A stretch of DNA of 45,861 bases from an uncultured delta proteobacterium (GTDB taxonomy: Bacteria; Desulfobacterota; Desulfomonilia; UBA1062): positions 1-45,861 of the forward strand of contig CAVVYZ010000012.1 of assembly GCA_963752595.1 (NCBI GenBank), read 5' to 3'. The notes beneath the pieces were generated by a model. That model had not been told where the DNA came from and did no database searches. It was given only the letters and a program-made list of their open reading frames with translations. A program made the translations under genes and the position numbers. Within the stretch, counting starts at the first letter, position 1. Each line of letters starts with the position of its first letter. Below are positions 3,512 to 35,575 of this stretch, piece by piece.

Positions 3512-5172
3512 ATGAGAAGTGATCAATACCAAGAAATCTTTTGAGAAGGCACCCCACCGTTCCCTGCTCAAGGCAAACGGCTCACCGACGAAGAGATACC
3601 ACGGCCGTTTGTCGGGATCGTGAACTCGGCCAACGAGATAATCCCCGGTCATATACACCTGGACAGGATGGTCCAGGCCGCAAAGGACGGCGTGCGCATG
3701 GCGGGCGGAACGCCCATGGAGTTCTCCGTCATCGGCATCTGCGACGGGATCGCCATGAACCACGAAGGGATGAAGTACTCTCTCCCTTCCCGGGAGATCA
3801 TTGCGGATTCCATCGAGATCGTGGCCATGGCCCATGCCTTTGACGCACTCGTGCTCATCCCCAATTGCGACAAGATCGTGCCCGGCATGCTCATGGCGGC
3901 GCCTGCGCCTCAACATCCCGGCCATCGTCGTCAGCGGCGGCCCCATGCTGGCGGGTCTGCACCGGGGCAAGGCCGTGGACCTCATCACCGTGTTTGAAGG
4001 CGTCGGACGGTTCAAGGCCGGGAAGATGACCGAGGATGAGCTTGAAGGAACTCGAAGGATGCGCCTGTCCCCGGCTCGGCACCTGCGCAGGCATGTTCAC
4101 GGCCAACTCCATGAACTGTCTCACCGAGGCCATCGGCATGGGCCTGCCGGGCAACGGCACCATCCCCGCGGTCTTCTCTGAACGGATCCGTCTCGCAAAG
4201 AAGGCGGGCATGAAGATCATGGAGCTCATGGAGAAAGGCATCACGCCCGCGGGAAATCGTGACCCCGAAGGCATTCAGGAACGCCATCGCCGTGGACATG
4301 GCCTTCGGTTGCTCGACGAACACGGTTCTTCATCTGCCGCCATGCGCTACGAGGCAGGCATCGATCTCGACCTCGATGATTTCGACAGGATGAGCAAGCG
4401 GCGCCCCATATCTGCAACATGTCTCCCGCAGGGCCGCACTATCATCGAGGATCTCTACCGGGCAGGCGGGGTCCAGGCGGTGATGAAGAGGCTGAGCCGG
4501 ACGGCATCCTGGATAGGGAGAGTTATGACCGTTACCGTTCGCCGTTGAAAGACAATCTCGCACGGGCCGAGATCATGGGGGACGACGTGATACGCCCCCT
4601 GGATAACCCCTATCATCGGGAAGGCGGGATCGCCATTCTCCGCGGAACCCTTGCCCCGGACGGCGCAGTGGTGAAGCAGTCGGGCGTCCTGCCCGAAATG
4701 ATGCAGCGCGAAGGCACGGCCAGGGTATATGATTCCGAAGAGGATGCGACCGCCGCGATCATGTCGCGGGGCGATCCGCGCAGGAGACATCGTAGTGATC
4801 AGGTACGAAGGCCCCAAGGGCGGGCCGGGCATGCGCGAAATGCTCACGCCCACATCGACCATTGCCGGGATGGGACTGGACAGGGATGTCGCCCTGATCA
4901 CGGACGGCAGGTTTTCCGGCGGCACGCGCGGTGCCGCTATCGGCCATTGTTCGCCCGAGGCGGCTTCCGGCGGTGCCATAGCACTGGTGAAAGACGGCGA
5001 TCGCATCAGGATCGATATCCCGGCACGGAAACTCGACCTCCTCGTGGATAAAGGCGAGCTCGAAGAGCGCAGGAAGGCCTTCTGCCCGCCTGAGAAAAAG
5101 CTTACCGGCGTACTGAAGCGTTATGCTGCGGCAACCCTGTCTGCAGATAAGGGTGCCAGGTACAGGGATTGA
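3512..5172 (+). CDS. ilvD: Dihydroxy-acid dehydratase (multiple frameshifts)
   Basis: Fragments contain [55 protein letters not shown] and [13 protein letters not shown]; ATG at 3512 after GGGAGGA. Confidence 0.95.
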
Positions 5173-8332: not shown

Positions 8333-8802
8333 TGCCGACAACCGAAACGCTGACGTGCCCTGCCTGCGGGCACGGCATCACCCGGTACAGAAACCCTGTA
8401 CCGACCGTGGATACCATCATCGAGTATGCATCGGGGATCGTGCTTATTCAAAGGAAGAACCCTCCTCATGGCTGGGCTCTGCCCGGAGGGTTCGTGGATT
8501 ACGGCGAGACCGTCGAGCATGCCGCCATGCGCGAAGCGGGCGAGGAGACGGGGCTTGACCTCCGGCACATGCGGATGTTCCACGTATACTCGGACCCCGG
8601 GAGAGACCCGAGACAGCACACCATCTCCATAGTCTTCACAGCGGAAGGCTCAGGCGAGCTCGTGGCCGGGGATGATGCCAAAGGGGCGGCCGTATTTTCC
8701 GAAGGCCATCTCCCGGAGGATATCGCGTTCGATCACTCCAGTATTATCAGAGACTATTATTCCTGGAAGCACGGGAAAAAAGAAGGGATGGTCCGGCAAT
8801 AA
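8332..8802 (+). CDS. NUDIX hydrolase with N-terminal CPACG knuckle
   Basis: Nudix box [28 protein letters not shown], plus RDPRQHT and AFDH motifs. Confidence 0.92.
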
Positions 8803-11377
8803 TGAACGGGAAAGAAGTCTATCTCATCGACGGCAGCTCGTACATTTACCGGGCGTTCTATGCCATGAGGAACCTCTCGACCTCCAAGGGCCTGCCCACC
8901 AATGCAGCCTATATCTGCTCCCGGATGCTGATCAATCTCCTCAAGGAGAAGAATCCCGAGCACATCTGCTTCGTGCTCGATTCCAAAGGCCCCACCTTCC
9001 GCCACGAGCTGTACAAGGATTATAAGGCTACGAGGCAGAAGATGCCCGAGGACTTGAGCGTCCAGATTCCCTATATCCTCCGGATCGTCGAGGCTCTGGG
9101 CATACCCCTGACGAGCAGGCAGGGCTTCGAGGCCGACGACATCATCGCAACCCTGGCCGCAAGGTGCGGCAAAGGCTGCCACGTGTTCATCGTCTCGGGA
9201 GACAAAGACCTCATGCAACTAGTGGACGATGACGTCGTGGTATGGGATACCCTGAGCAACAAGGTGTATGACCGCCAGGGAGTATTCGAGAAGTTCGGGG
9301 TCTACCCCGAGTTTATCCCGGACCTGCTGGCTATCATGGGGGACTCATCGGATAACATACCCGGGGTGCCCGGGATCGGAGCCAAGGGTGCTGCCTCGAT
9401 CATCCAGGAAAAAGGGCACGTACAGGACATCCTCGATCACATCGATTCCCTCACCGCGCCCAAACAGCGAAAGGCACTGGAAGAAAACAGCGGGCAGGCC
9501 CTTGAGGGCCTCAGGCCTCGTCACGCTCGACAGGGACGTGCCCCTCGACTTCGGCGTAGATGACCTGGTGAAACGTGCGCCGGATAAGGAGGAACTCGCC
9601 AGGCTCTTCACCGACCTCGAGTTCAAGGCCCTGCTGTCTGAGCTGGATATCGAGCACCCTGCTTCCGCACCTGCCAAGCATGATGGTGAAATAGAATTCG
9701 CCTGCAGGGCGGACCTTGCGGGAGAGCTCGGCATGTACGTCGCCGAAGGAGCCGGGTCGGCGCTCACGCAAGGCGAAACCACCTATGTCTGTTTCGAAAG
9801 TGAACTTTACCTCGACCCTCTGAAAAATACCGAGGCCCATATCACCATGCACGATGCCAAGCAGGCCTTTGTATCGGCCATCAGGCAAGGGATTGATATC
9901 AGGGCAGGCATCGATGACGTCATGCTCGGCGCCTACTGCATCGATGCGGCGAGCGGGAGCGTGCCTCTTGAAGACCTCGCGAAGATGTACCTGGACAAGC
10001 ATGTCCTGAGGCTCAAGGACCTGACAGGTTCGGGAAGGAGCTTCAGGGAGTTCTGCGACATCGACCGGAACGACCTTGCCGGGTGCATGGCCGGGTATGC
10101 AAGCGTGCTGGTTCCCCTGAAAGGCAAGATCTCGGAGCGCATGGAGAAGGTGGGGGTGGATAAAATCTACGCCGATATCGAAATCCCGCTCACCAGGGTG
10201 CTCGCCTCGATGGAGGCCGGCGGGGTTCTCATAGACCTGAATGGCCTGCAGAAGATATCCAAAGAGATAACCGGCTTCCTCGACGATATGGAAGGACGGA
10301 TCTACGGCATGGCAGGGGAGAAATTCAACATCAACTCCCCGAAGCAGCTGGGCGAGATCCTGTTCGAGAGATTGAAGCTTCCGGTGGGGAAGAAGACCAA
10401 AACCGGGTATTCCACGGACAGCAAGGTACTGGAATCCCTTGCATTCCGGCATGACCTCCCGGCCCTCATCCTGGAATACCGGATGTATGCAAAGCTGAAA
10501 AACACCTATGTGGATGCCCTGCCTCACGATGATAGATCCCGAGGACGGGCAGGATCCACACCCGGTTCAACCAGGCCAGTCACGGCAACGGGCCGCATCT
10601 CTTCCTCCGAGCCGAACCTGCAGAACATCCCCATCCGCTCGGAAATGGGCAGGCGGATCCGGGAGGCCTTCATAGCGCCCGCAGGGCTATACGATCCTGA
10701 GCGCCGACTATTCCCAGATCGAGCTCCGCATCCTGGCCCACATCACCGGTGACGAAACCCTGATGCAGTCCTTTACCGAGGGCCTGGACATCCATGCCAG
10801 GACCGCTTCCGAGATCTTCGGCATCCCCCTTGACGAGGTGACCGACAATCATCGCAGGGTGGCAAAGACCATCAATTTCGGCATCATGTACGGCATGGGC
10901 CCCCACAAGCTCTCGCAGGAGCTGGGGATCAAGAGGGATGTGGCCAAGCTCTACATCGACAACTACCTCGCCAAGTATCCCCGGGTGAAAGAGTACATGG
11001 ATGCCGTATCGTCCAAGGCAGAGGAGGACGGATGCGTCACGACCCTGCTGGGCAGGCGGAGGTCGCATCCCCGAGATCAGGTCCTCGAATTTCAACGAGC
11101 GCGAGGCGGGCAGGAGGATCGCCATCAACACCCCGATCCAGGGAACCGCGGCCGACATCATCAAGATGGCCATGGTGAGGATCCATGAGCGCCTGCAAGG
11201 GTATAAGCAGCAGGATGATCCTCCAGGTCCATGACGAGCTGGTGTTCGAGGTTGCAGAAGACGAGCTCGAATTGCTGACCAGGCTCGTGCAGGGACGAAA
11301 TGGAGAATGCCTATCCCCTCGATGTGCCCATCAGAGTCGACATCGGTACCGGCAGAAACTGGGCCGAAGCGCATTAA
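8802..11377 (+). CDS. polA: DNA polymerase I (several frameshifts)
   Basis: 5'-3' exonuclease LIDGSSYIYRAF, EADD and GDSSDNIPGVPGIG; polymerase TATGRISSSEPNLQNIP, DYSQIELR, KTINFGIMYG, QVHDEL; ends NWAEAH* at 11377. Confidence 0.96.
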
Positions 11378-11456: not shown

Positions 11457-12605
11457 TTAGCGCATTCCGAGGACTGCCCTGGAGACGACGACCCTCATGA
11501 TCTCGTTGGTGCCTTCGTAGATCTGGGTGATCTTGGCGTCTCTCATGAGCCGCTCCACGGGGTATTCCGAGCTGTAGCCGTAGCCGCCCAGGATCTGGAC
11601 TGCCTCGATGGAGGCATCCATGGCCGTATCGGAGGCAAACATCTTTGCCATGGCGGCTTCCTTCTCGAAGGGCAGGTGGTTGCTCTCGAGCCATGCAGCC
11701 TTCAGGATGAGGAGCTCGGATGCGTCGATGCGGGTGGCCATGTCGGCCAGCTTGAACTGGGTGGCCTGGAAGGCGGAAATGGGCTTGCCGAACTGGACCC
11801 TTTCCTTGGAATAACTGACCGACTCTTCAAGAGCGGCCTTGGCGATGCCCAGGGCCTGGGATGCGATGCCGATGCGGCCGGAGTCCAGCGTGGTGAGCAT
11901 CTGCTTGAAGCCCGAGCCCGGATCGCCCAGGATGGCGTCCTTGGGGATTCCGGCGTCCTGGAACACGAGCTCTGAGGTGCCCGAGCCGCTGATGCCTAGC
12001 TTTTCTTCGACCTTGCCCACGGAGAAGCCCTCGGTCTCCTCAAGGTCGATGACGAACTGGGTGATGCCTTTGTATCCTTTGGTTTTATCGGTAACTGCAG
12101 CGATAACCGCATATTTGGCGATATTGCCGTTGGTGATGAACTTTTTCTCGCCGTTGATGATCCAGTGAATCCCCGTCCAGGACTGCCGTGGTCTTCATGC
12201 CGGCCGGGTCGGAGCCGGCGTTGGCCTCGGTGAGGCCGTAGCAGCCGCATGCTTCTCCGCTGGCAACCGGGGTGCTGAATTTCTTTCTCTGCTCCTCGGT
12301 CCCGAAGTTGAAGACCGGGAAGCCGTAGAGGGAATTGTTCACCGACATGATCACGCCGTGGCTTGCGCATCCTCTCGAAATTTCCGTGAGGATCAGGGCA
12401 TAGGCCACATAGTCCATGCCTGCTCCGCCGTACTCGGCCGGGATGGCCACACCCATGAAGCCGTTCTCTCCCATTTTCTTCAGCACTTCGTCGCTGTGCC
12501 GGTGGTTCTTGTCCACCTCGGCTGCTATGGGTTTGAGCTCCTGGTCGGCGAATTTCCGCGCCATTTCTTTTACCATCTTGTGCTCATCGCTTAATGAAAA
12601 TCCAT
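11457..12605 (-). CDS. Acyl-CoA dehydrogenase (short/branched-chain-like; one frameshift near 12165)
   Basis: Start MDFSLSDEHKMVKEMARKFA after AGGAGG; motifs IPAEYGGAG, GLTEANAGSD, ERVQFGKPI, GGYGY and RDAKITQIYEGTNEI. Confidence 0.93.
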
Positions 12606-23430: not shown

Positions 23431-23518
23431 GCCGGAGTGGTGGAACTGGTAGACGCGTCGGACTCAAAATCCGAAGAGCCTTGCGCTTGTGGGGGTTCGA
23501 GTCCCCCCTCCGGCACCA
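23431..23518 (+). tRNA. tRNA-Leu(CAA)
   Basis: GCCGGAG/CTCCGGC acceptor stem, D loop with TGGTAGAC, anticodon arm TCGGA-CT-CAA-AA-TCCGA, long variable arm, GGTTCGAGTCC T arm and encoded CCA. Confidence 0.97.
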
Positions 23519-23579: not shown

Positions 23580-24002
23580 GAAATAAAGCACGGGTTTATT
23601 AAGGCCTGCTACAATCCAGTAGAGGACCTGGTGAAGATGCCGAACAAGGCCGCATTTGTGAACTTGGAAGAGTATTACAGTACCCTCTATCATGAGCTGA
23701 CTCACGCTGCAGGCGCACTATCCAGACTCAATCGAGAAACCCTTTCAACACCGGCGACTTTCGGATCGAAGAGCTACGCCCGAGAAGAGCTTATAGCTGA
23801 GAAGGGAGCAGCTTACCTGTGCACGATCACCGGCATTGCCCACGCCACAATTGAGAATTCAGCGGCATATATCCAGGGATGGAGGGACACGATCAGCAAG
23901 GACTCAAGACTTGTCGTCCTGGCCGCAGCACAGGCCCAGAAAGCAGTCAACCACATCATCGGCCAGCAAGAAGGTGATGATCACGAGGAAGAGCAGGGGT
24001 AA
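23580..24002 (+). pseudogene. C-terminal zincin metallopeptidase half of an ArdC-like antirestriction/polyvalent protein
   Basis: ACYNPVEDLVKMP...F...YYSTLYHELTH...RLNR...FGSKSYAREELIAE...ENSAAYIQGW...AAAQAQKAV; the N-terminal ssDNA-binding domain is missing. Confidence 0.8.
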
Positions 24003-24020: not shown

Positions 24021-24046
24021 CGCCGGGCTTCGCCCGGCCTGTTTTT
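24021..24046 (+). terminator. Probable intrinsic terminator
   Basis: GCCGGG-CTTCG-CCCGGC hairpin followed by TGTTTTT. Confidence 0.55.
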
Positions 24047-24258: not shown

Positions 24259-25242
24259 ATGCTTTATGGGAAAACAACTTATACTGAAGAACCATTTGAA
24301 CTTGAGAAAGAATTAGAAGAATCCATAATTGAAGTTGCCGGAGAGCTGTTCGGCAGGAATCGCATCTACCTGGATGTCAAAAAGAAAATCGGTGCAAAGG
24401 GTAAGGTTAACAACATACCCGATGGTTATCTTATTGATCTATCAAGCACTAAAGAGCCGAAATTGTATGTGGTTGAGGTTGAGCTTGCGAAACATGACCC
24501 GCTTAAACATGTATCCGTTCAGGTTCTTGAGTTTTCGTTATCTTTTGAAACAGCCCCTATTCTTGTTAAAAACATTCTGAAAGAATCTTTATTGTCGGAT
24601 AATACTGCTGTATCAAGATGCCAGAAATACGTGCAGGAAAATGGATATGATAATATAGACGTCCTCCTGGAAAAGATAATTTATGGCTCAGGTAAATTTA
24701 ATGCCTTGGTAATTATAGATGGATTATTACCCGAGCTTGAAACTGTCCTAATAAGCCGGTTCAAATTTCCAGTAGAGATATTGACCATTGAGCGATACCG
24801 ATCAAAATCAGGAGAAAGGCTCTATCGCTTCCAGCCTTTCTTAAATGACCTTACATCAACGGAAGAATCCAAGCTACCTCCGCTCGATCCATCAGAAATA
24901 GACACAATCGTTGTCCCTGCAAAGGAAGATGGTTTCAATGAAGTATTCATAGGACAGAATCGTTGGTATTCAATACGAATTCACGCAAGCATGATCCCCA
25001 AAATAAAATACATAGCAGTATATCGTGTTGCGCCTGAATCAGCCATAACCCATATAGCTAAGGTTGCATCTATCGATCTATGGGAGGACACAAACAAGTA
25101 TGTGGTGAATTTCGCATCTCCAGCAGAAGAAATAAAACCGATCAAACTCATAGCCAAGAGTAAAGTAAAGGCCCCTCAGGCTCCTCGGTATACTTCTAAG
25201 GATAGAATTGATTCAGCAAAGAATCTTGATGAGGTTTTTTAA
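24259..25242 (+). CDS. Putative PD-(D/E)XK-like nuclease fused to a C-terminal nucleic-acid-reader domain
   Basis: N-terminal ELEKELE...IPDGYLID...YVVEVELAKH...HVSVQ; separate C-terminal domain DTIVVPAKEDGFNEVFIGQNRWYSIRI...KYIAVYRVAPESAITHIA; AT-rich DNA. Confidence 0.55.
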   Translation: MLYGKTTYTEEPFELEKELEESIIEVAGELFGRNRIYLDVKKKIGAKGKVNNIPDGYLIDLSSTKEPKLYVVEVELAKHDPLKHVSVQVLEFSLSFETAPILVKNILKESLLSDNTAVSRCQKYVQENGYDNIDVLLEKIIYGSGKFNALVIIDGLLPELETVLISRFKFPVEILTIERYRSKSGERLYRFQPFLNDLTSTEESKLPPLDPSEIDTIVVPAKEDGFNEVFIGQNRWYSIRIHASMIPKIKYIAVYRVAPESAITHIAKVASIDLWEDTNKYVVNFASPAEEIKPIKLIAKSKVKAPQAPRYTSKDRIDSAKNLDEVF

Positions 25243-25280
25243 ATATAAGAATTGGTTTAAAATTAGAGAATGAGCCGGAA

Positions 25281-26783
25281 ATGACCAACGGTACGACTAC
25301 CCTTAACCAACTTGAATCCCATCTCTGGGAAGCCGCCAATATCCTGCGCGGCCCGGTGGATGCCGCCGACTTCAAGACCTACGTCTTCCCGCTGCTCTTC
25401 TTCAAGCGCATCTCGGATGTGCATGACGAGGAATACGCGGCCGCGCTGGCGGAATCCGGCGGCGACGAGGAATACGCCCAGTTCCCGCAGAACTACCGCT
25501 TCCAGATTCCCGGAGGGCTGCCACTGGAGCGATGTGCGCGCGGTCACGACCAACGTCGGCCAGGCGCTGCAGAAGGCCATGCGCGGCATCGAGAAGGCGA
25601 ACCCGGAAACGCTCTACGGCATCTTCGGCGATGCGCAGTGGACCAACAAGGACCGCCTGCCCGATTCGCTGCTCCGCGACCTCATCGAGCACTTCTCGCG
25701 CATCAACCTCGGCAACCAGGCGGCGCAGGCGGACATCCTCGGCCAGTCCTACGAATACCTGATCAAGAAGTTCGCCGACCCACGAACAAGAAGGCGGGCG
25801 AGTTCTACACCCCGCGCTCGGTCGTGCGGCTGATGGTCAACATCCTCGACCCCAGGGAAGGCGAGTCCATCTACGATCCCGCCTGCGGCACCGGCGGCAT
25901 GCTGCTGGAGGCCATCCACCATGTCCGCGAGAACCACGGCGACGACCGCACGCTCTGGGGCAAGCTCTTCGGCGCAGGAGAAGAACCTCACCACCTCCGC
26001 CATCGCCCGGATGAACCTCTTCCTGCACGGCGCGTCGGATTTCCAGGTCGTGCGCGGCGACACGCTGCGCCAGCCGGCGTTCTTCTCCGGCGACAACCTC
26101 GCCACCTTCGACTGCGTCATCGCCAATCCGCCCTTCTCGCTGGAGAAGTGGGGCGACGAGGTCTGGACCAGCGATCCCTACGGCCGCAACTTCGCCGGCA
26201 TGCCGCCGGCCAAGAGCGGCGACTACGCCTGGGTGCAGCACATGATCAAGTCCATGGCGCCCGACGACCGGCCGCATGGCCGTGGTGCTGCCGCACGGCG
26301 CGCTCTTCCGCATGGGCAAGGAAGGCGAGATCCGGCAGAAGATCCTCGGCATGGACCTGCTCGAAGCCGTCATCGGCCTCGGGCCGAACCTCTTCTACGG
26401 CACCGGCCTGGCCGCCTGCATCCTCGTCTTCCGCCAGCGCAAGGCGAAGGACCGGAAGAACAAGGTGCTCATCCTCGACGCCTCGAAGGAGTTCAAGACC
26501 GGCCGGGCCCAGAACGAACTGCTGCCCGAGCACGTCGAGCGCATCTACGGCTGGTATCGCGACTACAAGGACGTGGAAGGCGTCGCCCGCGTGGTCACGC
26601 TGGACGAGATCGCCGCCAACGACCACAACCTGAACATCCCGCGCTACGTCGAGCCGAAGATCGAGCAGGAAGTGCTCACGGTGGAGGAGGCGATGAAGCG
26701 GCTGCAGGAGAGCGCCGAGGCGGCCTTTGCGGCGGAGGAGAAGCTCGATCGCCATCCTCAAGCGGGAGGGTCTGCTGATATGA
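25281..26783 (+). CDS. hsdM: Type I R-M methyltransferase subunit M1 (NPPF; predicted m6A), frameshifted by indels
   Basis: LESHLWEAANILRG, GEFYTPRSVV, IYDPACGTGGML, IANPPF at 26125-26136; the true stop ...AILKREGLLI* overlaps the M2 start (ATGA). Confidence 0.92.
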
Positions 26784-28279
26784 CCGCCCGCATCACCCAG
26801 CAGCAGCTCGAATCCTACCTCTGGGGCGCGGCCGCGCTCCTGCGCGGGACCATCGACGCCGGCGACTACAAGCAGTTCATCTTCCCGCTGCTGTTCTACA
26901 AGCGGCTGTGCGATGTCTTCGACGAGGAGACGCAGACCGCGCTGGCGGAGTCCGGCGGCGACGACGAGTTCGCCGCCTACCCGGAGAACCACCGCTTCCA
27001 GATCCCGCCCGAGGCCCACTGGCGCGAGGTGCGGCAGGCCGCCAAGAACGTCGGCCAGGCGCTGCAGTCCGCCATGCGCGCCATCGAGACCGCCAACCCC
27101 GACAAGCTCTACGGCATCTTCGGCGACGCCCAGTGGACCAACAAGGACCGCCTCTCCGACGCCATGCTGCGCGACCTGGTCGAGCACTTCAGCACGCTCG
27201 AACTCACCGTCGCCAACCTGCCCGAGGACGAGCTGGGCCAGGGCTACGAATACCTGATCAAGAAGTTCGCCGACGACTCCGGCCACACCGCCGCCGAGTT
27301 CTACACCAACCGCACCGTCGTCCACCTGATGACCGAGATGCTCGAGCCGCAGCCGGGCGAGTCCATCTACGACCCCACCTGCGGCTCCGGCGGCATGCTG
27401 CTCTCCTGCATCGCCCACCTGCGCCGGCAGGGCAAGGAGTGGCGCAACGTCCGGCTCTACGGCCAGGAGCGCAACCTCATGACCTCCTCCATCGCCCGGA
27501 TGAACTGCTTCCTCCACGGCATCGAGGACTTCCGCATCGAGCGCGGCGACACCCTGGCCGAGCCGAAGTTCGTCCAGGGCGACCGCCTCATGCGCTTCGA
27601 CGTGGTGCTGGCCAATCCGCCCTATTCCATCAAGCAGTGGGACCGCGACGCCTTCGCCTCCGACCCCTGGGGGCGCAACCTCTACGGCACCCCGCCGCAG
27701 GGCCGGGCCGACTACGCCTTCTGGCAGCACATCCTGTGCAGCCTCGCGCCCAAGACCGGCCGCTGCGCCATCCTCTTCCCGCACGGCGTCCTCTTCCGCC
27801 AGGAGGAGGCGGAGATGCGGCGCAAGCTCATCGAAGCCGACCTGATCGAGTGCGTCCTCGGCCTCGGGCCGAACCTCTTCTACAACTCGCCGATGGAAGC
27901 CTGCGTCGTCATCTGCCGCACGGCCAAGCCCAAGGCGCGCAGGGGCAAGATCCTCTTCATCAACGCCGTGAACGAAGTCACCCGCGAACGCGCCCAGAGC
28001 TTCCTCACCGACGACCACATCGAGCGCATCGTCGACGCCTACCGAGACGTTCAAGGACGAGCCCGGCTTCACCCGCGTGGCCACGCTGGAGGAGATCCGC
28101 GCCAAGGACGGCAACCTGAGCATTCCGCTGTATGTTTCGCCCTGCTGAACCTCAAGGCGTGATGGAAAACGACAGCGGCCAACGGCGGACCTGCGTTGGA
28201 TCGAGTGCTCTCCGACTGGCTGGAAAGCTCGCGCCTCGTGCGGCAGTCATTGGCTGCCATCCTGAAGGAGCACCCATGA
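26780..28279 (+). CDS. hsdM: Type I R-M methyltransferase subunit M2 (NPPY; predicted m4C)
   Basis: MTARITQQQLESYLWGAAALLRG, AEFYTNRTVV, IYDPTCGSGGML, LANPPY at 27614-27625; C-terminus after indels ends ...AAILKEHP* with an ATGA overlap. Confidence 0.92.
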
Positions 28280-29832
28280 CCGGGAAACGGCGCATCTTCA
28301 TAAGCTCGGTGCAGAAGGAGCTTGCTCCCGAGCGCCGTGCCGTGCGCGATTTCATCGCAGGTGACGCGCTCTTGCGCCGCTTCTTCGATGTGTTTCTATT
28401 CGAAGACCTCCCTGCTTCCGGCCGGAGGCCCGATGAGCTGTACCTGTCGGAGGTGGACCGCTGCGCCATCTATCTCGGCCTGTTCGGCAACGAGTACGGC
28501 TACGAGGATGCAGCCGGGATCTCGCCCACCGAGCGCGAGTTCGACCGCGCCACTGCCATGGGCAAGGAGCGGCTCATCTTTGTCAAAGGCAGTGACGACA
28601 AGGCCCGCCATCCGAAGATGCAGGCCCTGGTCGCCAAGGCGAGCGCCCAGCTCAACCGCCGCCGGTTCGGCAGCCTCCCGGAGCTGACCGCACTGGTCTA
28701 TGCCGGTATCGTCGATTATCTCGTCGCAGGCGGCGCCGTGCGTACCCGTCCTTTTGACGCCGCTGCCTGCCTTGATGCCACGATAGACGGCCTTTCTCCG
28801 GAAAAGCTGGCCGATTTCCTTGCTCGGGCACAGCACAGCCGCGGCTATGCCCTCGGCCCGGATACGCCCATGCACAAGGCGCTGGCACACCTGAACCTGT
28901 TAGAAGGGGACCACCCCAGCCACGCTGCCGTGCTTCTCTTCGGGAAGGAGCCCCAGCGTTTTCTCATCAGCTCGGAGGTGAAATGCCTCCACTTCCACGG
29001 TACCGAGGTCCGCAAACCCATCCCCTCCTACCAGGTCTACCGGGGCACGGTTTTCGAGCTGGTGGACCAGGCCGTGGACTTCGTCATGTCCAAGATCAAC
29101 CGGAGCGTGGGCACCCGCTCCGGAGGTCCGACGGCGCCGGTGACCTATGAAGTGCCCCGCGACGCCGTTGCCGAGGCCATCGTGAATGCCATTGCCCACC
29201 GGGACTATGCCTCCGATGCCTCGGTCCAGGTCATGCTTTTTGCCGACCGTCTCGAAGTCTGGAACCCGGGCCATCTGCCCCCCACGCTGACCCCAGAGGC
29301 GCTCCGGCATCCGCACGCCTCCATCCCCCGGAACCCGCTCCTGGCCGACCCGCTCTTCCTCACCCGCTACATCGAGAAGGCCGGCACCGGCACCCTCGAC
29401 ATGATCGCTCTGTGCCAAGAGGCGGGCCTGGCTTCGCCCGGCTTCCGGCAGGACCACGGCCAGTTTGTCCAGACCCTTATGCGTCCGCCTGCGGCAGCCG
29501 CACAAGTCGCTGCAGAGGTCCTTACCGACGATAAACACCTCTGGGACTTTGCACTGGCCGGCATTGCCCGGGCCTTCCCGGCCGCCACCGCACAAGTCAG
29601 CGCACAAGTCGCCGCACAAGTCGCGCTCTTCTGCCGCGAGCCGAGATCGGCGCGGGAGATCATGGATCACTTGGAGCTGAAGCACTGGAAGACCTTCCAG
29701 GGAAACTACCTCAACCCGCTGATACAGGGCGAGCTGCTGGAGCGCACCATCCCGGACAAGCCCACCAGCCGCCTCCAGAAATACCACCTCACCGTTCAAG
29801 GACGGACCTGGCTCGCCGGGGGGAAGCCATGA
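28276..29832 (+). CDS. DUF4062 (TIR/deoxyribosyltransferase-like) + HATPase_c_4 (RecG C-terminal-like) + C-terminal HTH protein
   Basis: RIFISSVQKELAPER...YLSEVDRCAIYLGLFGNEYG...SPTEREFDRA (DUF4062-like); EAIVNAIAHRDY...DRLEVWNPG...RNPLLA...IEKAGTG; C-terminal LERTIPDKPTSRLQKYHLT. Confidence 0.8.
   Translation: MTGKRRIFISSVQKELAPERRAVRDFIAGDALLRRFFDVFLFEDLPASGRRPDELYLSEVDRCAIYLGLFGNEYGYEDAAGISPTEREFDRATAMGKERLIFVKGSDDKARHPKMQALVAKASAQLNRRRFGSLPELTALVYAGIVDYLVAGGAVRTRPFDAAACLDATIDGLSPEKLADFLARAQHSRGYALGPDTPMHKALAHLNLLEGDHPSHAAVLLFGKEPQRFLISSEVKCLHFHGTEVRKPIPSYQVYRGTVFELVDQAVDFVMSKINRSVGTRSGGPTAPVTYEVPRDAVAEAIVNAIAHRDYASDASVQVMLFADRLEVWNPGHLPPTLTPEALRHPHASIPRNPLLADPLFLTRYIEKAGTGTLDMIALCQEAGLASPGFRQDHGQFVQTLMRPPAAAAQVAAEVLTDDKHLWDFALAGIARAFPAATAQVSAQVAAQVALFCREPRSAREIMDHLELKHWKTFQGNYLNPLIQGELLERTIPDKPTSRLQKYHLTVQGRTWLAGGKP
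29587..29622 (+). repeat. 3 x 12-bp in-frame tandem repeat (NNCGCACAAGTC)
   Basis: ACCGCACAAGTC AGCGCACAAGTC GCCGCACAAGTC encodes TAQV-SAQV-AAQV; a fourth copy lies near 29497. Confidence 0.8.
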
Positions 29833-31052
29833 ACGCCGTGCTCCATCAGCTTGGCAGCCTCCGGCCCAACCCTGACTGGGCCAGCCTCCCGATCTTTGAA
29901 CGCAAGGGCTGGAAGCGTCTACCGTTCGGCAAGTTCGCAGACAGCATCAATGAACGGGTTGATCCTGCAAATGCCGCGGAGGAAAGCTACGTGGGCCTGG
30001 ACGATCTCGATCCCGGCAGTCTGCATATCCGGCGCTGGGGCAAGGGCAGCGATGTCATCGGCATCAAGCTCCGCTTCCGGAAAGGAGACATCATTTTCGG
30101 ACGCCGGAGGGCCTACCAGCGAAAACTGGCCGTAGCAGAGTTCGACGGGATCTGCTCGGCCCATGCAATGGTAGTCAGGGCAAAGCCGGACATGGTGCTG
30201 CCGGAATTCCTGCCGTTCTTGATGATGAGCGATAAGTTCATGAATCGGGCTGTGGAGATCTCCGTAGGCTCTCTTTCACCCACTATCAACTGGACTACGT
30301 TGAAGCTCCAGGAGTTCGACCTCCCACCGATCGAGCAACAACGACGAATCGTAGAAGTTCTTTGGGCTACGGATGATGTCATCCATTATGAAAATCATTT
30401 ACTTTATTCATCACATACCGCCTACGAGACGAAGGCTAATGATTTTTTCTTTGGCCATGATCAGAAGCATAGCTTATTTAATCCAAAATGGAATACGGTG
30501 CGGTTACAGGATGTCAATGATCCCAATTCGCCAATCCGATATGGAATTGTTCAGGTAGGAGCGTATTGCAAGTCAGGTATCCCAACTGTTGCGATCAAGA
30601 ATCTATCTGGTAATTTCAAAGATGATCTACATTATACAGCGCCTGAAATAGAAGCGCAGTATTCAGGTAGCAGGGTTAAGCCTAAGGATTTGCTACTCTC
30701 AATAAAGGCTACAATCGGTGAAGTTGCAATCGTGCCTGAATATTTTGAGGGGAACATTAGCCGAGACATTGCCCGAATTAGATGCAACTCGTTTGTTGAT
30801 CCTCGATTATTTCTTCACTTATTTCGATCTAATCGTTACAAATCATATATTGACAAGTATGTTGTTGGATCTACACGGAAGGAAATATCCATTCATCATC
30901 TTCGGAAATTTGAGGTCCCAATCCCGCCACCTAAAGCAGTTCAATACTTCCTTGAGTCTGTTGAGGAAATTTTAAAAACTTTTTCATCGATATATGCTCA
31001 TTCTAGGGCATCAATAGAATTAAGAAACAGTATTATCGGAGGAGTATTCTAA
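29829..31052 (+). CDS. hsdS: Type I R-M specificity subunit
   Basis: Two TRDs, each followed by a conserved-region-like helix (LPPIEQQRRIV; VPIPP); KGDIIFGRRRAY in TRD1 and DLLLSIKATIGEVAIV in TRD2. Confidence 0.92.
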   Translation: MNAVLHQLGSLRPNPDWASLPIFERKGWKRLPFGKFADSINERVDPANAAEESYVGLDDLDPGSLHIRRWGKGSDVIGIKLRFRKGDIIFGRRRAYQRKLAVAEFDGICSAHAMVVRAKPDMVLPEFLPFLMMSDKFMNRAVEISVGSLSPTINWTTLKLQEFDLPPIEQQRRIVEVLWATDDVIHYENHLLYSSHTAYETKANDFFFGHDQKHSLFNPKWNTVRLQDVNDPNSPIRYGIVQVGAYCKSGIPTVAIKNLSGNFKDDLHYTAPEIEAQYSGSRVKPKDLLLSIKATIGEVAIVPEYFEGNISRDIARIRCNSFVDPRLFLHLFRSNRYKSYIDKYVVGSTRKEISIHHLRKFEVPIPPPKAVQYFLESVEEILKTFSSIYAHSRASIELRNSIIGGVF

Positions 31053-34044
31053 TGTTCACAGAGTCAAGTACCGTCGAACAGATGATCCTCGATAGCGTTG
31101 CCGTCCAGCCCAGTAAAGAACCGGTTCCGGCGCATGATCACATGGCACCGGGCTGGGGCGAGTCCCTCGGACGACGAGTTGCGGCCGGCCCGCTGGGAGC
31201 TACCTGCCCGCCGCCCAGCTCCCGCGCCAGAGCGGCGACGTGATGGTGGAGCCGTGGGTGCGCGAGGCGCTCATCCGGCTCAACCCCGAGATCGCCGCCC
31301 AGCCCGACCGCGCCGACGAGGTCATCTACAACCTGCGGGCCATGCCTCCTCTCCGTGCAGGCCGACGGCCTGGTGCGGGCCAACGAGAACTTCATGGCCT
31401 GGCTGCGCGGCGAGAAGACCATGCCCTTCGGCCCCAACGGCGAGCACGTGCCCGTGCGGCTGGTGGATGCCGCCAACCCGGCCAACAACCGGCTCACCGT
31501 GATGCAACCAGTGGACCTACCAGGCCGGCGCGGTGGAGAAGCGGTTCGACGTGGTCTTCCTGGTCAACGGCCTGCCGCTGGTCATCGGCGAGGCCAAGAC
31601 GCCCACGCGCAGCGCGGTGACCTGGTTCGACGGCGCCTTCCAGATCAACGAGATCTACGAGAAGCAGGTCCCGGCCATGTTCGTGCCGAACGTCTTCTCC
31701 TTCGCCACCGAGGGCAAGCCTGTTCCGCTACGGCTCCATCCGCATGCCCATCGACATGTGGGGGCCGTGGCGCGACGAGGAGAACCAGGAGGAAGGCCAG
31801 CTGCACCACGTGCAGGCCACGGTGGAGAGCATGCTCCGGCCCGAGGTGGTGCTGGACATCCTGCAGAACTTCACCCTCTTCGCCACGGACAAGAAGCACC
31901 GGCGCATCAAGATCATCTGCCGCTACCAGCAGTACTACACCACCAACCAGATCGTGGACCGCGTGGTGAAGGGCTACCCGAAGAAGGGCCTGATCTGGCA
32001 TTTCCAGGGCAGCGGCAAGTCGCTGCTGATGGTCTTTGCCGCGCAGAAGCTGCGGATGCACCCGAAGCTGGGCAACCCCACGGTGATGATCGTGGTGGAC
32101 CGCATCGACCTCGACACGCAGATCACCGCCACCTTCAACGCCGCCGACGTGCCGAACATGGTCGGCGTGGCCACGCGCCAGGAGTTGCAGACGCTGCTCG
32201 GGCAGGACGTGCGCAAGGTGCTCATCACCACCATCCACAAGTTCGGCGAGGCCGGCGGCAGGCTGAACGAGCGCTCGAACATCATCGTGATGGTGGACGA
32301 GGCCCACCGCACCCAGGAAGGCGACCTGGGCCGCAAGATGCGCGAGGCGCTGCCCAATGCCTTCCTCTTCGGCCTCACCGGCACGCCCATCAACCGCGCC
32401 GACCGCAACACCTTCTGGGCCTTCGGCGCCGACGAGGACGAGAAGGGCTACATGAGCCGCTACTCGTTCCAGGACTCCATCCGCGACAAGGCCACGCTGC
32501 CGCTGCACTTCGAGGCGCCGGAGGTGAAGCTGAAGATCGACAAGGCCGCCATCGACGAGGCCTACAAGCAGATCACCGGCAACCTGAGCGAGCAGGACCG
32601 CGACGACCTGGCCAAGCGCGCCGCCAAGATGGCCGTGCTGGTGAAGAACCCCGAGCGCGTCCGCGCCGTGGTGAAGCACATCGTCAAGCACTTCCAGACC
32701 AAGGTGGAGCCGAACGGCTTCAAGGCGCAGGTGGTGGTCTTCGACCGCGAGTGCTGCGTGCTCTACAAGCAGGTGATGGATGAGCTGATCGGCCCGGAGG
32801 CCAGCGCCATCGTCATGACCGCCGCGCAGGGCGACCCGCCGGAGTGGAAGCAGCACGTCCGCGACAAGGACGCCGAGGAGAAGCTGCTCGACCGCTTCCG
32901 CGACCCGGCCGACCCGCTCAAGTTCGTCATCGTCACCAGCAAGCTGCTCACCGGCTTCGACGCGCCCATCCTGCAGGTGATGTATCTCGACAAGCCGATG
33001 AAGGACCACAACCTCCTGCAGGCCATCTGCCGCACCAACCGCACCTTCGGCCAGGAGAAGACCCACGGCCTGATCGTGGACTACATCGGCATCTTCGACG
33101 ACGTGGCCCGGGCGCTGGACTTCGACGAGAAGGCCGTGCAGCAGGTCGTCTCCAACATCGACGAGCTGCGCAAGGCGCTGCCCGTGCAGATGCAGAAGTG
33201 CCTGGCCTTCTTCCCCGGCGTGGACCGGACGCGTCGGCGGCTACGAGGGGCTGATGGCCGCGCAGCAGTGCCTGCCCAACAACGAAGTGCGGGACAAGTT
33301 CGCCGCCGAATACATCGTGCTCGGCACCATCTGGGAGGCGCTCTCGCCCGACCCGTGCCTCAGCCCCTACGAGAAGGACTACCGCTGGCTGACGCAGGTC
33401 TACGAGTCGGTGAAGCCGCCCAGCGGCAACGGCAAGCTGCTCTGGCACGCCCTCGGCGCCAAGACCGTCGAACTGATCAACCAGAACGTCCACGTCGAAT
33501 CGGTGCGCGACGACGTCGAGACGCTGGTGCTGGACGCGCAGGTGCTGGAGGAAATCCTGAAGGACGCCGATCCCGGCAAGAAGGCGCAGGGAGATCGAGA
33601 TCAAGCTCATCGCCCGCCTGCGCAAGCACCTGGGCAACCCCAAGTTCATCGCCCTGGGCGAGCGGCTGGAGAAGATCAAGGAGCGCCACGAGCAGGGCTT
33701 CCTCACCAGCCTGGAGTTCCTGAAGGCAGATCCTCGAACTGGCCAAGGAAGTCGTCGAAGCCGAGAAGGAGACCGATCCCGAGGAGGAGCGCGACCGGGC
33801 CAAGGAGGCCCTGACGGAGCTGTTCAACGAGGCCAAGAGCAAGAACACCCACATCATCGTCGAGCGCATCGTCGCCGACATCGACGAGATCGTGAAGAAG
33901 GTCCGCTTCCCCGACTGGCAGCACACGAGCCAGGGCGAGCGCCTGGTGCAGAAGGAACTCCGCCGCACGCTGCTCAAGTACAAGCTGCACACCGACCAGG
34001 AGCTGTTCGACAAGGCGTACGGCTACATCCGGCAGTATTACTAG
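31052..34044 (+). CDS. hsdR: Type I R-M restriction subunit (several indels)
   Basis: Nuclease RFDVVFLVNGLPLVIGEAK, Walker A WHFQGSGKS, VVDRIDLD, DEAHR, GLTGTP, LLTGFDAP, QAICRTNR; ends YGYIRQYY* at 34044. Confidence 0.93.
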
Positions 34045-34187
34045 GTGCAGGAGAGAGGATCTCTGGGTAGCTGGACATGAGAATCGAGATTAATAAGATT
34101 AGAAGTGTACCGATTTTAGGGCGGACTAAGATAAGTACCTTTCTCAAGTTCTCGGGAAATATTTATTGATAAGATGAAAGGGAATCT

Positions 34188-34261
34188 ATGGAAAATAGAT
34201 TCGAGGGAGCAATAGCAGTTTTAGACATCCTTGGTTTCCGGTCGCTAATGGAAACAATGGA
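34188..34261 (+). pseudogene. 5' stub of a cyclase-like (DILGF motif) gene truncated by the IS3 element
   Basis: ATG at 34188 after GAAAGGGAA reads MENRFEGAIAVLDILGFRSLMETME and then runs into the IS inverted repeat. Confidence 0.45.
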
Positions 34262-34327
34262 AGAGGTGGCTCCGGTTGTTTGGACAGGGGATGGCGATTT
34301 ATAAGTGGAGCCTTGCCGCTATTCCCA

Positions 34328-35158
34328 TTAAGCTGCATCGGGCATACTCTCCCGATAACCGAAATAAATCTCATCCGGGGTTGATCTGTCAAGTTTAGAG
34401 TGTGGTCTGTGATGATTGTAAAAAGTCAGATAGCGTTCCAAGCCGCTCCTTGCTTCACTGACACTGTCATAGGCGTGCAGATAGACCTCCTCATACTTGA
34501 TGCTTCTCCAAAGCCTCTCTACGAACACATTATCACGCCGGCATCCTCTCCCGTCCATGCTAACGGCAATACCCTTTTCTTTCAAAAGATCAGTGAATTC
34601 CACGCTGGTAAACTGGCTGCCCTGGTCGGTATTGAAGATCTCGGGCGTGCCGTAGAGGCCGAAGGCTTCCCTCACCGCATCGATACAGAAATCTGTGCTC
34701 AGCGTATTAGATAGCCTCCATGAGAGTACCTTTCGTGTTGCCCAGTCCATTACCACGAAAAGATAGACAAAGCCCCGCTTCATCGGAATATAGGTGATGT
34801 CTGCTGCCCAGACGTGGTTTGGTCTATCTATCTTTATATTCCTAAGCAGATAGGGGTAGACTTTATGAGCAGGGTGACGCTTGCTGGTATTGGGCTTACA
34901 GTAAAGGGCATTGATGCCCATCTTTTTCATCAGAGTGCTTGTGTGACGACGACCGATCTTATGCCCTTCACGTCTGAGTATACTCATAAGCATGCGGGCC
35001 CCGGCAAAGGGATATTCAAGGTGCAGCTCATCAATCCTGCGCATCAGCACAAGATCGGAAGGCGTAGCCGGCCGTGGCAGGTAATATACGCTCGAACGCG
35101 GCAGCTTCAAGGTACGGCACTGTTTCGCTACCGGCATTTTGTGGCTGGGATTTATCAT
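34328..35158 (-). CDS. IS3 transposase OrfB (DDE integrase core)
   Basis: WAADITYIP, FNTDQGSQFTS, DNVFVERLWRSIKYE, YNHHRPH. Confidence 0.95.
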   Translation of the reverse strand: MINPSHKMPVAKQCRTLKLPRSSVYYLPRPATPSDLVLMRRIDELHLEYPFAGARMLMSILRREGHKIGRRHTSTLMKKMGINALYCKPNTSKRHPAHKVYPYLLRNIKIDRPNHVWAADITYIPMKRGFVYLFVVMDWATRKVLSWRLSNTLSTDFCIDAVREAFGLYGTPEIFNTDQGSQFTSVEFTDLLKEKGIAVSMDGRGCRRDNVFVERLWRSIKYEEVYLHAYDSVSEARSGLERYLTFYNHHRPHSKLDRSTPDEIYFGYRESMPDAA

Positions 35159-35451
35159 TTTCTTGCGCTCAATCGACCCACTTTGATGAGCGCATGCTCA
35201 AAAAAATCATTCTCCAGGGTCAGCTCTCCAATCTTGGCATGCAGATCCTTTAAGTCCGGCTCCTTGTCCTTCTTAGAACCGTCAAAGACCGTAGATGCAC
35301 CATCGAGCATCTGCTGCTTCCAGTCCGATATCTGGTTGGGGTGTACATCAAACTGTTCAGCTAACTCCACTAGCGTTTTATCCCCCTTGATTGCTGATAA
35401 TGCCACTTTCGCTTTGAAACTTGCCGAGTGATTCCGTCGCTTCCTCTTCAT
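35155..35451 (-). CDS. IS3 transposase OrfA (HTH)
   Basis: RRNHSASFKAKVAL...ELAEQFDVHPNQISDWK...LHAKIGELTLENDF; T7 slippery run at 35200-35206 on the minus strand. Confidence 0.93.
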   Translation of the reverse strand: MKRKRRNHSASFKAKVALSAIKGDKTLVELAEQFDVHPNQISDWKQQMLDGASTVFDGSKKDKEPDLKDLHAKIGELTLENDFFEHALIKVGRLSARK

Positions 35452-35575
35452 GCTCTTGCTCCTTTCTTTGACCGTATTTCATCGGCCTGTTTTGAGCAAG
35501 ACCCACTAATAGACCTGTCCGAATTTGCGGAGCCACTTCTGCTTTCCGGGATACTCTCGATAGGGTTAAAAGGGA

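Follow-up and report, generated by a model that had tools for sequence, protein, structure and literature searches.

The locus under study occupies positions 24259..34261 of a 45,861-nt contig stretch from an uncultured delta proteobacterium (CAVVYZ010000012.1; the whole stretch is hereafter the window). It holds two methyltransferase (MTase) genes, hsdM1 and hsdM2, a DUF4062-domain gene, hsdS and hsdR, preceded by an open reading frame termed ORF327 and followed by a gene stump cut by an insertion sequence of the IS3 family (Table 1). As an earlier sequence-only reading of this DNA had stated, every gene is on the plus strand, and the chain of overlaps that it described from hsdM1 to hsdR was located as three ATGA overlaps (26780-83, M1/M2; 28276-79, M2/DUF4062; 29829-32, DUF4062/S) and one TAATG overlap (31050-54, S/R); the stops in the first two ATGA overlaps are in frame only after allowing for frameshifts. 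Outside this chain stand ORF327 (38-nt gap to hsdM1) and the stump (143-nt gap from hsdR), both with a GC content of about 39-42% against about 65% for the core. Promoter and terminator scans of the locus gave results near chance. Pfam and PADLOC recovered two HsdM paralogues, HsdS and HsdR together with the DUF4062 gene, which bears out the dual-MTase part of the earlier reading. That reading had proposed that the genes together may make up a three-layered, undescribed composite defence system. The predicted activity of each gene is plausible, but the idea of one composite system was not supported: we put at roughly 70% the probability that an island at tRNA-Leu here combines a known two-methylase restriction-modification (R-M) operon with defence passengers that are likely independent and swappable.

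Table 1. Features of the island and of the defence locus within the window
Feature	Position	Strand	Evidence
tRNA-Leu(CAA), integration hotspot, left island end	23431..23518	+	ARAGORN
ArdC-type metallopeptidase (MPTase-PolyVal) fragment, mobile-element remnant	23631..24002	+	PF18818, E 1e-26
ORF327, predicted N-terminal PD-(D/E)XK-fold nuclease and C-terminal PUA/ASCH/EVE/YTH-like domain	24259..25242	+	model, fold searches
HsdM1, NPPF, m6A-type, 5 one-base frameshifts	25281..26783	+	motif and PDB match
HsdM2, NPPY, m4C-type, 3 frameshifts near the 3' end	26780..28279	+	motif and PDB match
DUF4062/NIR - GHKL ATPase (PF13749) - winged helix (PF21247), 518 aa, intact, M2-S slot	28276..29832	+	Pfam
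HsdS, conserved m4C-type TRD1 and low-GC TRD2	29829..31052	+	S.PacII match
HsdR with 7-8 one-base frameshifts, carrying nuclease and helicase motifs	31052..34044	+	Pfam, PADLOC
24-codon 5' gene stump, hydrophobic-D-x-x-G-F motif, ended by IS3	34188..34261	+	sequence
IS3-family element (orfA/orfB), right island end	34262..35540	-	27-nt inverted repeats, no target duplication

Judged by its sequence, the core is a member of the described subgroup of two-methylase type I R-M systems that pair N4-methylcytosine (m4C) with N6-methyladenine (m6A). In the available text of the defining study, an NPPF and an NPPY methylase, the order M1-M2-S-R and an m4C-type first target recognition domain (TRD1) in HsdS mark this subgroup (Morgan 2016, PMC5100572). 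All of these were found here, with NPPF upstream and NPPY downstream, and the two methylases fall in the 45-55% identity range of the subgroup, each nearest its own group: M1 and M2 share 46-48% identity on two C-terminal frameshifted pieces and 54-56% when intact M1 relatives are used. The motif-IV segment of HsdM1 matched the NPPF chain 7vru_A (E 7e-41) better than 7vru_B (E 5e-32), and HsdM2 matched PacII chain B, 7vru_B (E 3e-188), better than 7vru_A (E 2e-132). HsdS matched S.PacII (7vru_C) with an E value of 5e-57, strongest over TRD1. This domain is 44-79% identical to family members and has 58% GC; TRD2 matches none of them, has 39% GC and is evidently a recent swap. HsdR is 89-93% identical to intact relatives at two other loci, L199 and L200 (L and G numbers are our handles for loci and genomes), and a plasmid search returned 3 records with M2-family genes. 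The likeness to PacII and its subgroup (PMC5100572; PDB 7VRU/7VS4) thus covers gene order, MTase sorting, TRD1 and the presence of interspersed open reading frames. According to the same text, such interspersed frames are common in the subgroup, lie between M2 and S in 2/10 systems, and more than 300 such two-MTase systems are in REBASE (PMC5100572). The window differs by its new TRD2 (adenine half-site), by the DUF4062 passenger in the M2-S slot, by its frameshifted assembly and in that its methylation is predicted. From the close homology we infer m6A and m4C methylation together with restriction: by analogy with PacII, an M1M2S complex is expected to modify adenine through M1 and cytosine through M2, and HsdR to cleave incoming DNA that lacks the methylation. 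With the dual-MTase core belonging to a named and characterised subgroup, the label of an undescribed composite is unsupported.

The DUF4062 gene has the Pfam architecture DUF4062-HATPase_c_4-Fic-like_C. Its PF13271 domain scored 74 bits against a cut-off of 24.7 and has a TIR/nucleoside deoxyribosyltransferase-like fold, as found in DUF4062/NIR domains; downstream of it lie about 420 aa that make up the GHKL and winged-helix parts. In fold searches, the structural model resembled DIP2311 (3LMM) over the whole protein and, in its N-terminal domain, TIR domains as well as nucleoside deoxyribosyltransferases; the model is weak in the GHKL part (mean predicted local distance difference test score, pLDDT, 68.5). 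Of 7998 proteins scored, 6673 were homologues. Among 50 aligned homologues, F89, E300 and N304 were invariant (50/50 each) and F8 and E88 were conserved in 49/50. The pair E88-F89 and the N-terminal aromatic F8 were equated with the catalytic E87-Y88 and with F11 of Evangelion Eva01 by motif description, not by direct alignment. The available text of three 2026 preprints describes DUF4062 domains as anti-phage NADases that need a conserved Glu: Evangelion (10.64898/2026.06.25.731849), Swarozyc (10.64898/2026.05.01.722283) and PsAvs2/Vulcan/Vesta, where the domain is called NIR (10.64898/2026.09.04.749371). These reports strengthen the proposal of the sequence-only reading that the embedded gene is an abortive effector. 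The window protein shares with them the N-terminal PF13271 domain, the TIR-like fold, the conserved Glu followed by an aromatic residue and the defence-island context; it differs in its partner region, a GHKL ATPase plus winged helix. The words 'HATPase' and 'RecG' do not occur in the main texts of the three preprints, which list architectures in their figures and supplements. Identity with Eva01 itself, a DUF4062 domain with a short unannotated AUX region, was rejected on account of the approximately 420 aa that follow the domain. No paper on DUF4062-PF13749 proteins was found in the literature searched, the coverage of which leaves out most subscription journals.

The nearest described chassis is that of the Schlatpases, in which a Schlafen (SLFN) domain is joined to a PF13749 GHKL domain with or without a helix-turn-helix (10.64898/2026.05.29.728809; PDB 3LMM). 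In SLFN-Argonaute systems, as far as the text available to us goes, ATP binding by the PF13749 domain drives tetramer formation via E314/N318 (RzAgo numbering), and E300 and N304 of the window protein form the same E-x3-N pair. The protein is not itself a Schlatpase, in that it has no PF04326 (SLFN/AlbA_2) match and carries DUF4062 in its place; it shares the chassis of GHKL and winged helix and differs by a predicted DUF4062 NADase instead of the Schlafen RNase and by having no Argonaute sensor. Schlatpases are likewise described, in the parts of the literature seen, in or beside R-M and BREX-related operons; a Schlatpase fused to HsdS or beside it is reported, and in a BREX survey the core loci of at least 1017 taxa have Schlafen-kinase-wHTH (winged helix-turn-helix) genes next to them. 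Within the R-M family of the window, Schlatpases occupy slots in L205, L252 and L253. In sum, the protein is best read as a putative Schlatpase with the RNase swapped for an NADase, and its family and conserved residues lead us to infer an NADase with a GHKL switch. Oligomerisation is predicted by analogy: ATP binding would drive it and the TIR-like domain would then hydrolyse nicotinamide adenine dinucleotide (NAD+), as proposed from NIR NADases and the SLFN-GHKL switch. The protein would act as a one-gene abortive effector, with the winged helix or the GHKL part sensing a cue, and would be co-translated with hsdM2 and hsdS while probably being independent of the R-M subunits. As a side observation, the GHKL part also matches Argonaute-associated SIR2-PNTD models (PADLOC, E 4e-16), which suggests that this chassis also carries SIR2 NADases.

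The first passenger, ORF327, had been called a nuclease-reader, and for its fold this is supported. In a confident model (pLDDT 88.6), residues from about 7 to 196 adopt a restriction-nuclease fold and those from about 208 to 321 form a PUA/ASCH/YTH/EVE-like barrel, the latter matching ZmASCH (Foldseek E 3e-4; Z 8.0, root-mean-square deviation 3.2, 105 aa) and the former HamA (Z 8.4; 4.1, 160 aa) and NucS (Z 8.2; 3.1, 108 aa). With Z-scores of about 8 the assignment to a PUA-superfamily reader joined to a nuclease fold is borderline for the single protein, and many family members agree with it. Residues P54, D55, E73, E75 and W236 are invariant in 58 family sequences and give the motif P54-D55...E73-x-E75; the E-x-E may resemble BamHI-type sites, and W236 may correspond to the aromatic cage of EVE/YTH domains. 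There are 2625 homologues, and no match to ORF327 in Pfam, PADLOC or NCBIfam; the ESM Atlas gave unnamed clusters and a NucS_C lead at 0.88. A paper on the family was not found in the literature searched (most subscription journals outside coverage). ORF327 resembles the PUA-superfamily type IV enzymes VcaM4I, YenY4I and ScoA3V (PMC6765204, PMC7641849) in fusing a PUA/ASCH/EVE-like reader to a nuclease, and Bell 2020, in the part available, reports many EVE-nuclease fusions. In the accessible text of Lutz 2019, readers are N-terminal and the genes usually lie away from MTases. ORF327 departs from this pattern: its reader is C-terminal, its motif is PD...E-x-E, it often adjoins MTase genes and it has no family model. 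The fold alone makes it a candidate stand-alone, type IV-like, modification-dependent nuclease, which would be self-contained and read a modified base that the host lacks. Since family members coexist with m6A, m4C and 5-methylcytosine methylases in different loci, a modification of phage DNA, or else a mark confined to certain contexts, seems the likelier target.

The last gene had been labelled cyclase-like. This label was not confirmed: 24 codons remain before IS3, and the family was found by no search. The stump had no match in Pfam, PADLOC or NCBIfam; a word-indexed search also gave none, which is weak evidence, and the single phmmer match among 1.84 billion representatives was a repetitive protein and was judged spurious. 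Its D-x-x-G-F motif may resemble that of nucleotide cyclases, whose domain has two metal-binding aspartates. No continuation of the gene turned up next to other IS3 copies or in the rest of the genome (G000, 84% complete). An unannotated 303-aa protein at L105:8187-9098 opens with a similar D-x-x-G-F motif; the likeness is weak, as 23 of 2000 shuffles scored as high. That protein, which has no Pfam family, shares its defence-like island with a DUF4062-GHKL gene. The stump would be what IS3 left of a gene and is non-functional as it stands.

The whole locus is a genomic island of about 12 kb at tRNA-Leu. In the congener G009 the same tRNA lies about 110 bp from clc, the gene that follows IS3 in the window; this is an empty site, and thus about 23.5-35.6 kb of the window is an insertion. 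At the same tRNA, G004 carries an unrelated type I system in opposite orientation (L011, G004:C12:34000-53999), in which hsdS and hsdR are separated by two embedded genes, one for KilA-N and one for a reverse transcriptase of 1268 aa. The 3' end of tRNA-Leu also recurs about 11 kb (L017, G007) and about 6 kb (L019, G006) downstream of the tRNA, as if other islands using this hotspot had their attR sites there. A second copy of the tRNA 3' end near the island of the window was looked for and not found, and a Pfam scan showed no integrase among the island frames. The ArdC-type fragment, which we take to belong to an anti-restriction-associated family, directly precedes the defence cargo, and a terminator-like hairpin lies 3' of it (24022-24046), the terminator scan being at chance level. 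Among the matches listed for 40 relatives, there was no extended DNA match to the R-M core and one relative matched ORF327 at 67%. Near the contig end (43783-45544) lies a fragmented IS701-family transposase.

How far the passengers belong to the operon was judged from their distribution. The sequence-only reading had named, as what would speak against it, accessory genes that do not accompany such R-M loci elsewhere. For ORF327, the neighbours at 80 genome loci were scanned (all 142 flanking frames of at least 100 aa and 32 of 107 second neighbours, mostly picked by length): an m4C-family (M2-family) MTase was beside it in 0/80, type I M-like matches occurred in 7/80, all at 36% identity or less, and in at least 30/80 loci the neighbours included BREX genes or R-M genes (types I, II, IIG, III, ISP or IV). 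The family occurred in 1 of 400 other genomes of the phylum. Conversely, 21 M2-family loci drawn from three phylum samples (about 1140 genomes) held ORF327 in none and DUF4062 in one, L199 (53% identical, beside a 92%-identical M2). Taken together, the counts of 0/80, 0/21 and 1/21 go most of the way to refuting the sequence-only reading on its own terms. The slot in these 21 loci held SLFN-GHKL genes in three cases and elsewhere Bro-N, DUF6088 plus AbiEii, YhcG, GmrSD or nothing. The DUF4062 neighbour scan covered 95 of 97 flanking frames and 8 others (L130 had no frame call), and R-M or BREX-related neighbours of several unrelated classes were present in 21 of 66 non-redundant metagenome loci, while 8 of 24 genome loci had such a gene within 1.5 kb. 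In a 400-genome phylum sample, the DUF4062 family occurred in 23 genomes and the MTase family in 10; a single genome had both, against 0.6 expected (Fisher p 0.45). Supported branches of a quick tree, for which 14 near-duplicate loci were removed beforehand and L111 was dropped (internal stop), separate L199 from the group of the window, which implies two or more separate entries into the M2-S slot, or else a loss of the gene followed by its return. Homologues also sit in the M-S slot of other type I systems (L165, L173, L221). All this fits a DUF4062 gene that is portable cargo with a liking for R-M operons.

Several observations weigh against such independence. Roughly one in three DUF4062 homologues is part of a DNA-modification operon, which fits a guard role too. 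The nearest homologues, L102 (79%) and L104 (69%), are in the same slot and follow an M2 90% identical to that of the window (2/66 metagenome loci); with L103 and L106 they form a supported five-member group with the window, and one DUF4062 lineage may have been co-inherited with this R-M family. The ATGA overlaps on both sides show translational coupling with hsdM2 and hsdS. These points support an alternative in which the DUF4062-GHKL-winged-helix protein is a guard like PrrC or Ronin, held inactive by the M1M2S/R complex or monitoring it and destroying NAD+ once a phage anti-restriction protein blocks the complex, with ORF327 and the stump as unrelated neighbours. The embedded, doubly overlapping gene, its recurrence in the same slot in L102, L104 and L199 as well as in the M-S slots just named, and the precedents of PrrC-EcoprrI and Ronin, whose effector genes lie inside type I operons in the text available (PMC12707154; 10.1101/2023.04.06.535777), along with the HsdS-linked Schlatpases, speak for it. 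However, most DUF4062 homologues lie outside type I operons, and their R-M-like hosts belong to unrelated classes (type I, IIG, SNF2-PLD, DUF499/DUF1156), which makes a shared binding surface unlikely. The Ronin effector is always linked to hsdMS in the same sources; the DUF4062 gene has no such constant linkage, nor is there a genome-level association between its family and the MTase family. We therefore regard the guard as unlikely.

A second alternative concerns the state of the core, which could be a decaying pseudogene cluster in which only ORF327, the DUF4062 gene and hsdS are intact. Compared with intact relatives, M1 has 5 one-base indels, M2 3 and R 7-8, and 14-15 of the 15-16 are +1 insertions. 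All lie in these three genes, with ORF327, the DUF4062 gene and hsdS spared, and the right island end is already truncated by IS3, as decay would predict; in addition, the locus was in none of the read runs searched (best word share 0.10), which leaves room for pseudogenisation. The insertion bias and the absence of nonsense codons from the in-frame parts checked point the other way, as M2 has 0 stops in 421 in-frame codons and, over the same codons, differs from L104 by 82 synonymous and 38 amino-acid changes, a purifying pattern. The contigs of four public runs, which hold relatives only, differ from the window at the indel places in the 12 of 175 matches listed. Because polA (8802-11188) is likewise broken, into three pieces, in the same window, we read the approximately 15 frameshifts as probable assembly errors; gapA, ilvD and an acyl-CoA dehydrogenase are also partial or split (1630-2475, 4419-5051, 11457-12576). 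Conserved genes with many look-alikes in the metagenome are plausibly the hardest to polish, which may account for the distribution of the indels. Decay of the core is improbable in our view, and an assembly so rich in indels calls for caution with other 'broken gene' findings in this genome. Least credible of all is the original notion of a single multi-layer system in which all the parts have evolved together. The shared orientation of the genes, the short gaps between them and predicted activities that complement each other would suit it, but ORF327 and DUF4062 occur together only in the window among 238 loci, 11 further loci had neither ORF327 nor DUF4062-domain proteins, a gap of about 25 GC points separates ORF327 from the core, and the stump has just 24 codons.

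A separate observation concerns type I loci with a lone NPPY (M2-like) methylase and no adjacent M1, which were seen in L206 (G354:C7), L207 (G122), L256 (G505), L257 (G698), L258 (G625:C114), L259 (G743) and L260 (G803). In L206, L256, L257 and L259 both halves of HsdS resemble the m4C-type TRD1 (31-57% identity); L258 has a half-size S and L260 an ordinary two-type S. No M1-like match of at least 50% was present in G354, G122 (98% complete), G505, G698, G743 or G803; L254 was rejected from this set as M1 is present. In the available text of Morgan 2016 no natural all-m4C type I system had been observed, and M2 alone was inactive in PacII and DbaKI (PMC5100572). The lone-NPPY loci are candidate natural all-m4C type I systems, and this side observation may matter more than the main locus.

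The combination as such matters little: it shows a known R-M operon in which cargo has settled. What merits attention is two of the passengers taken singly, both candidate anti-phage genes. The wider proposition that they stand for a large ATP-switched class of NADase guards in R-M operons, interchangeable with Schlafen RNases and killing the cell when restriction is blocked, and also for a second, distinct class of type IV nucleases whose C-terminal PUA reader recognises phage base modifications, is one we consider doubtful. The DUF4062-GHKL-winged-helix family numbers thousands of members; it would extend the newly described NIR NADases by an ATP-switched architecture and, NAD+ being simple to read out, would reveal what is sensed by the common GHKL-winged-helix chassis. 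The ORF327 family, for which three libraries have no model, could represent a modification-dependent nuclease of a new sort or, alternatively, the reader of an uncharacterised DNA mark.

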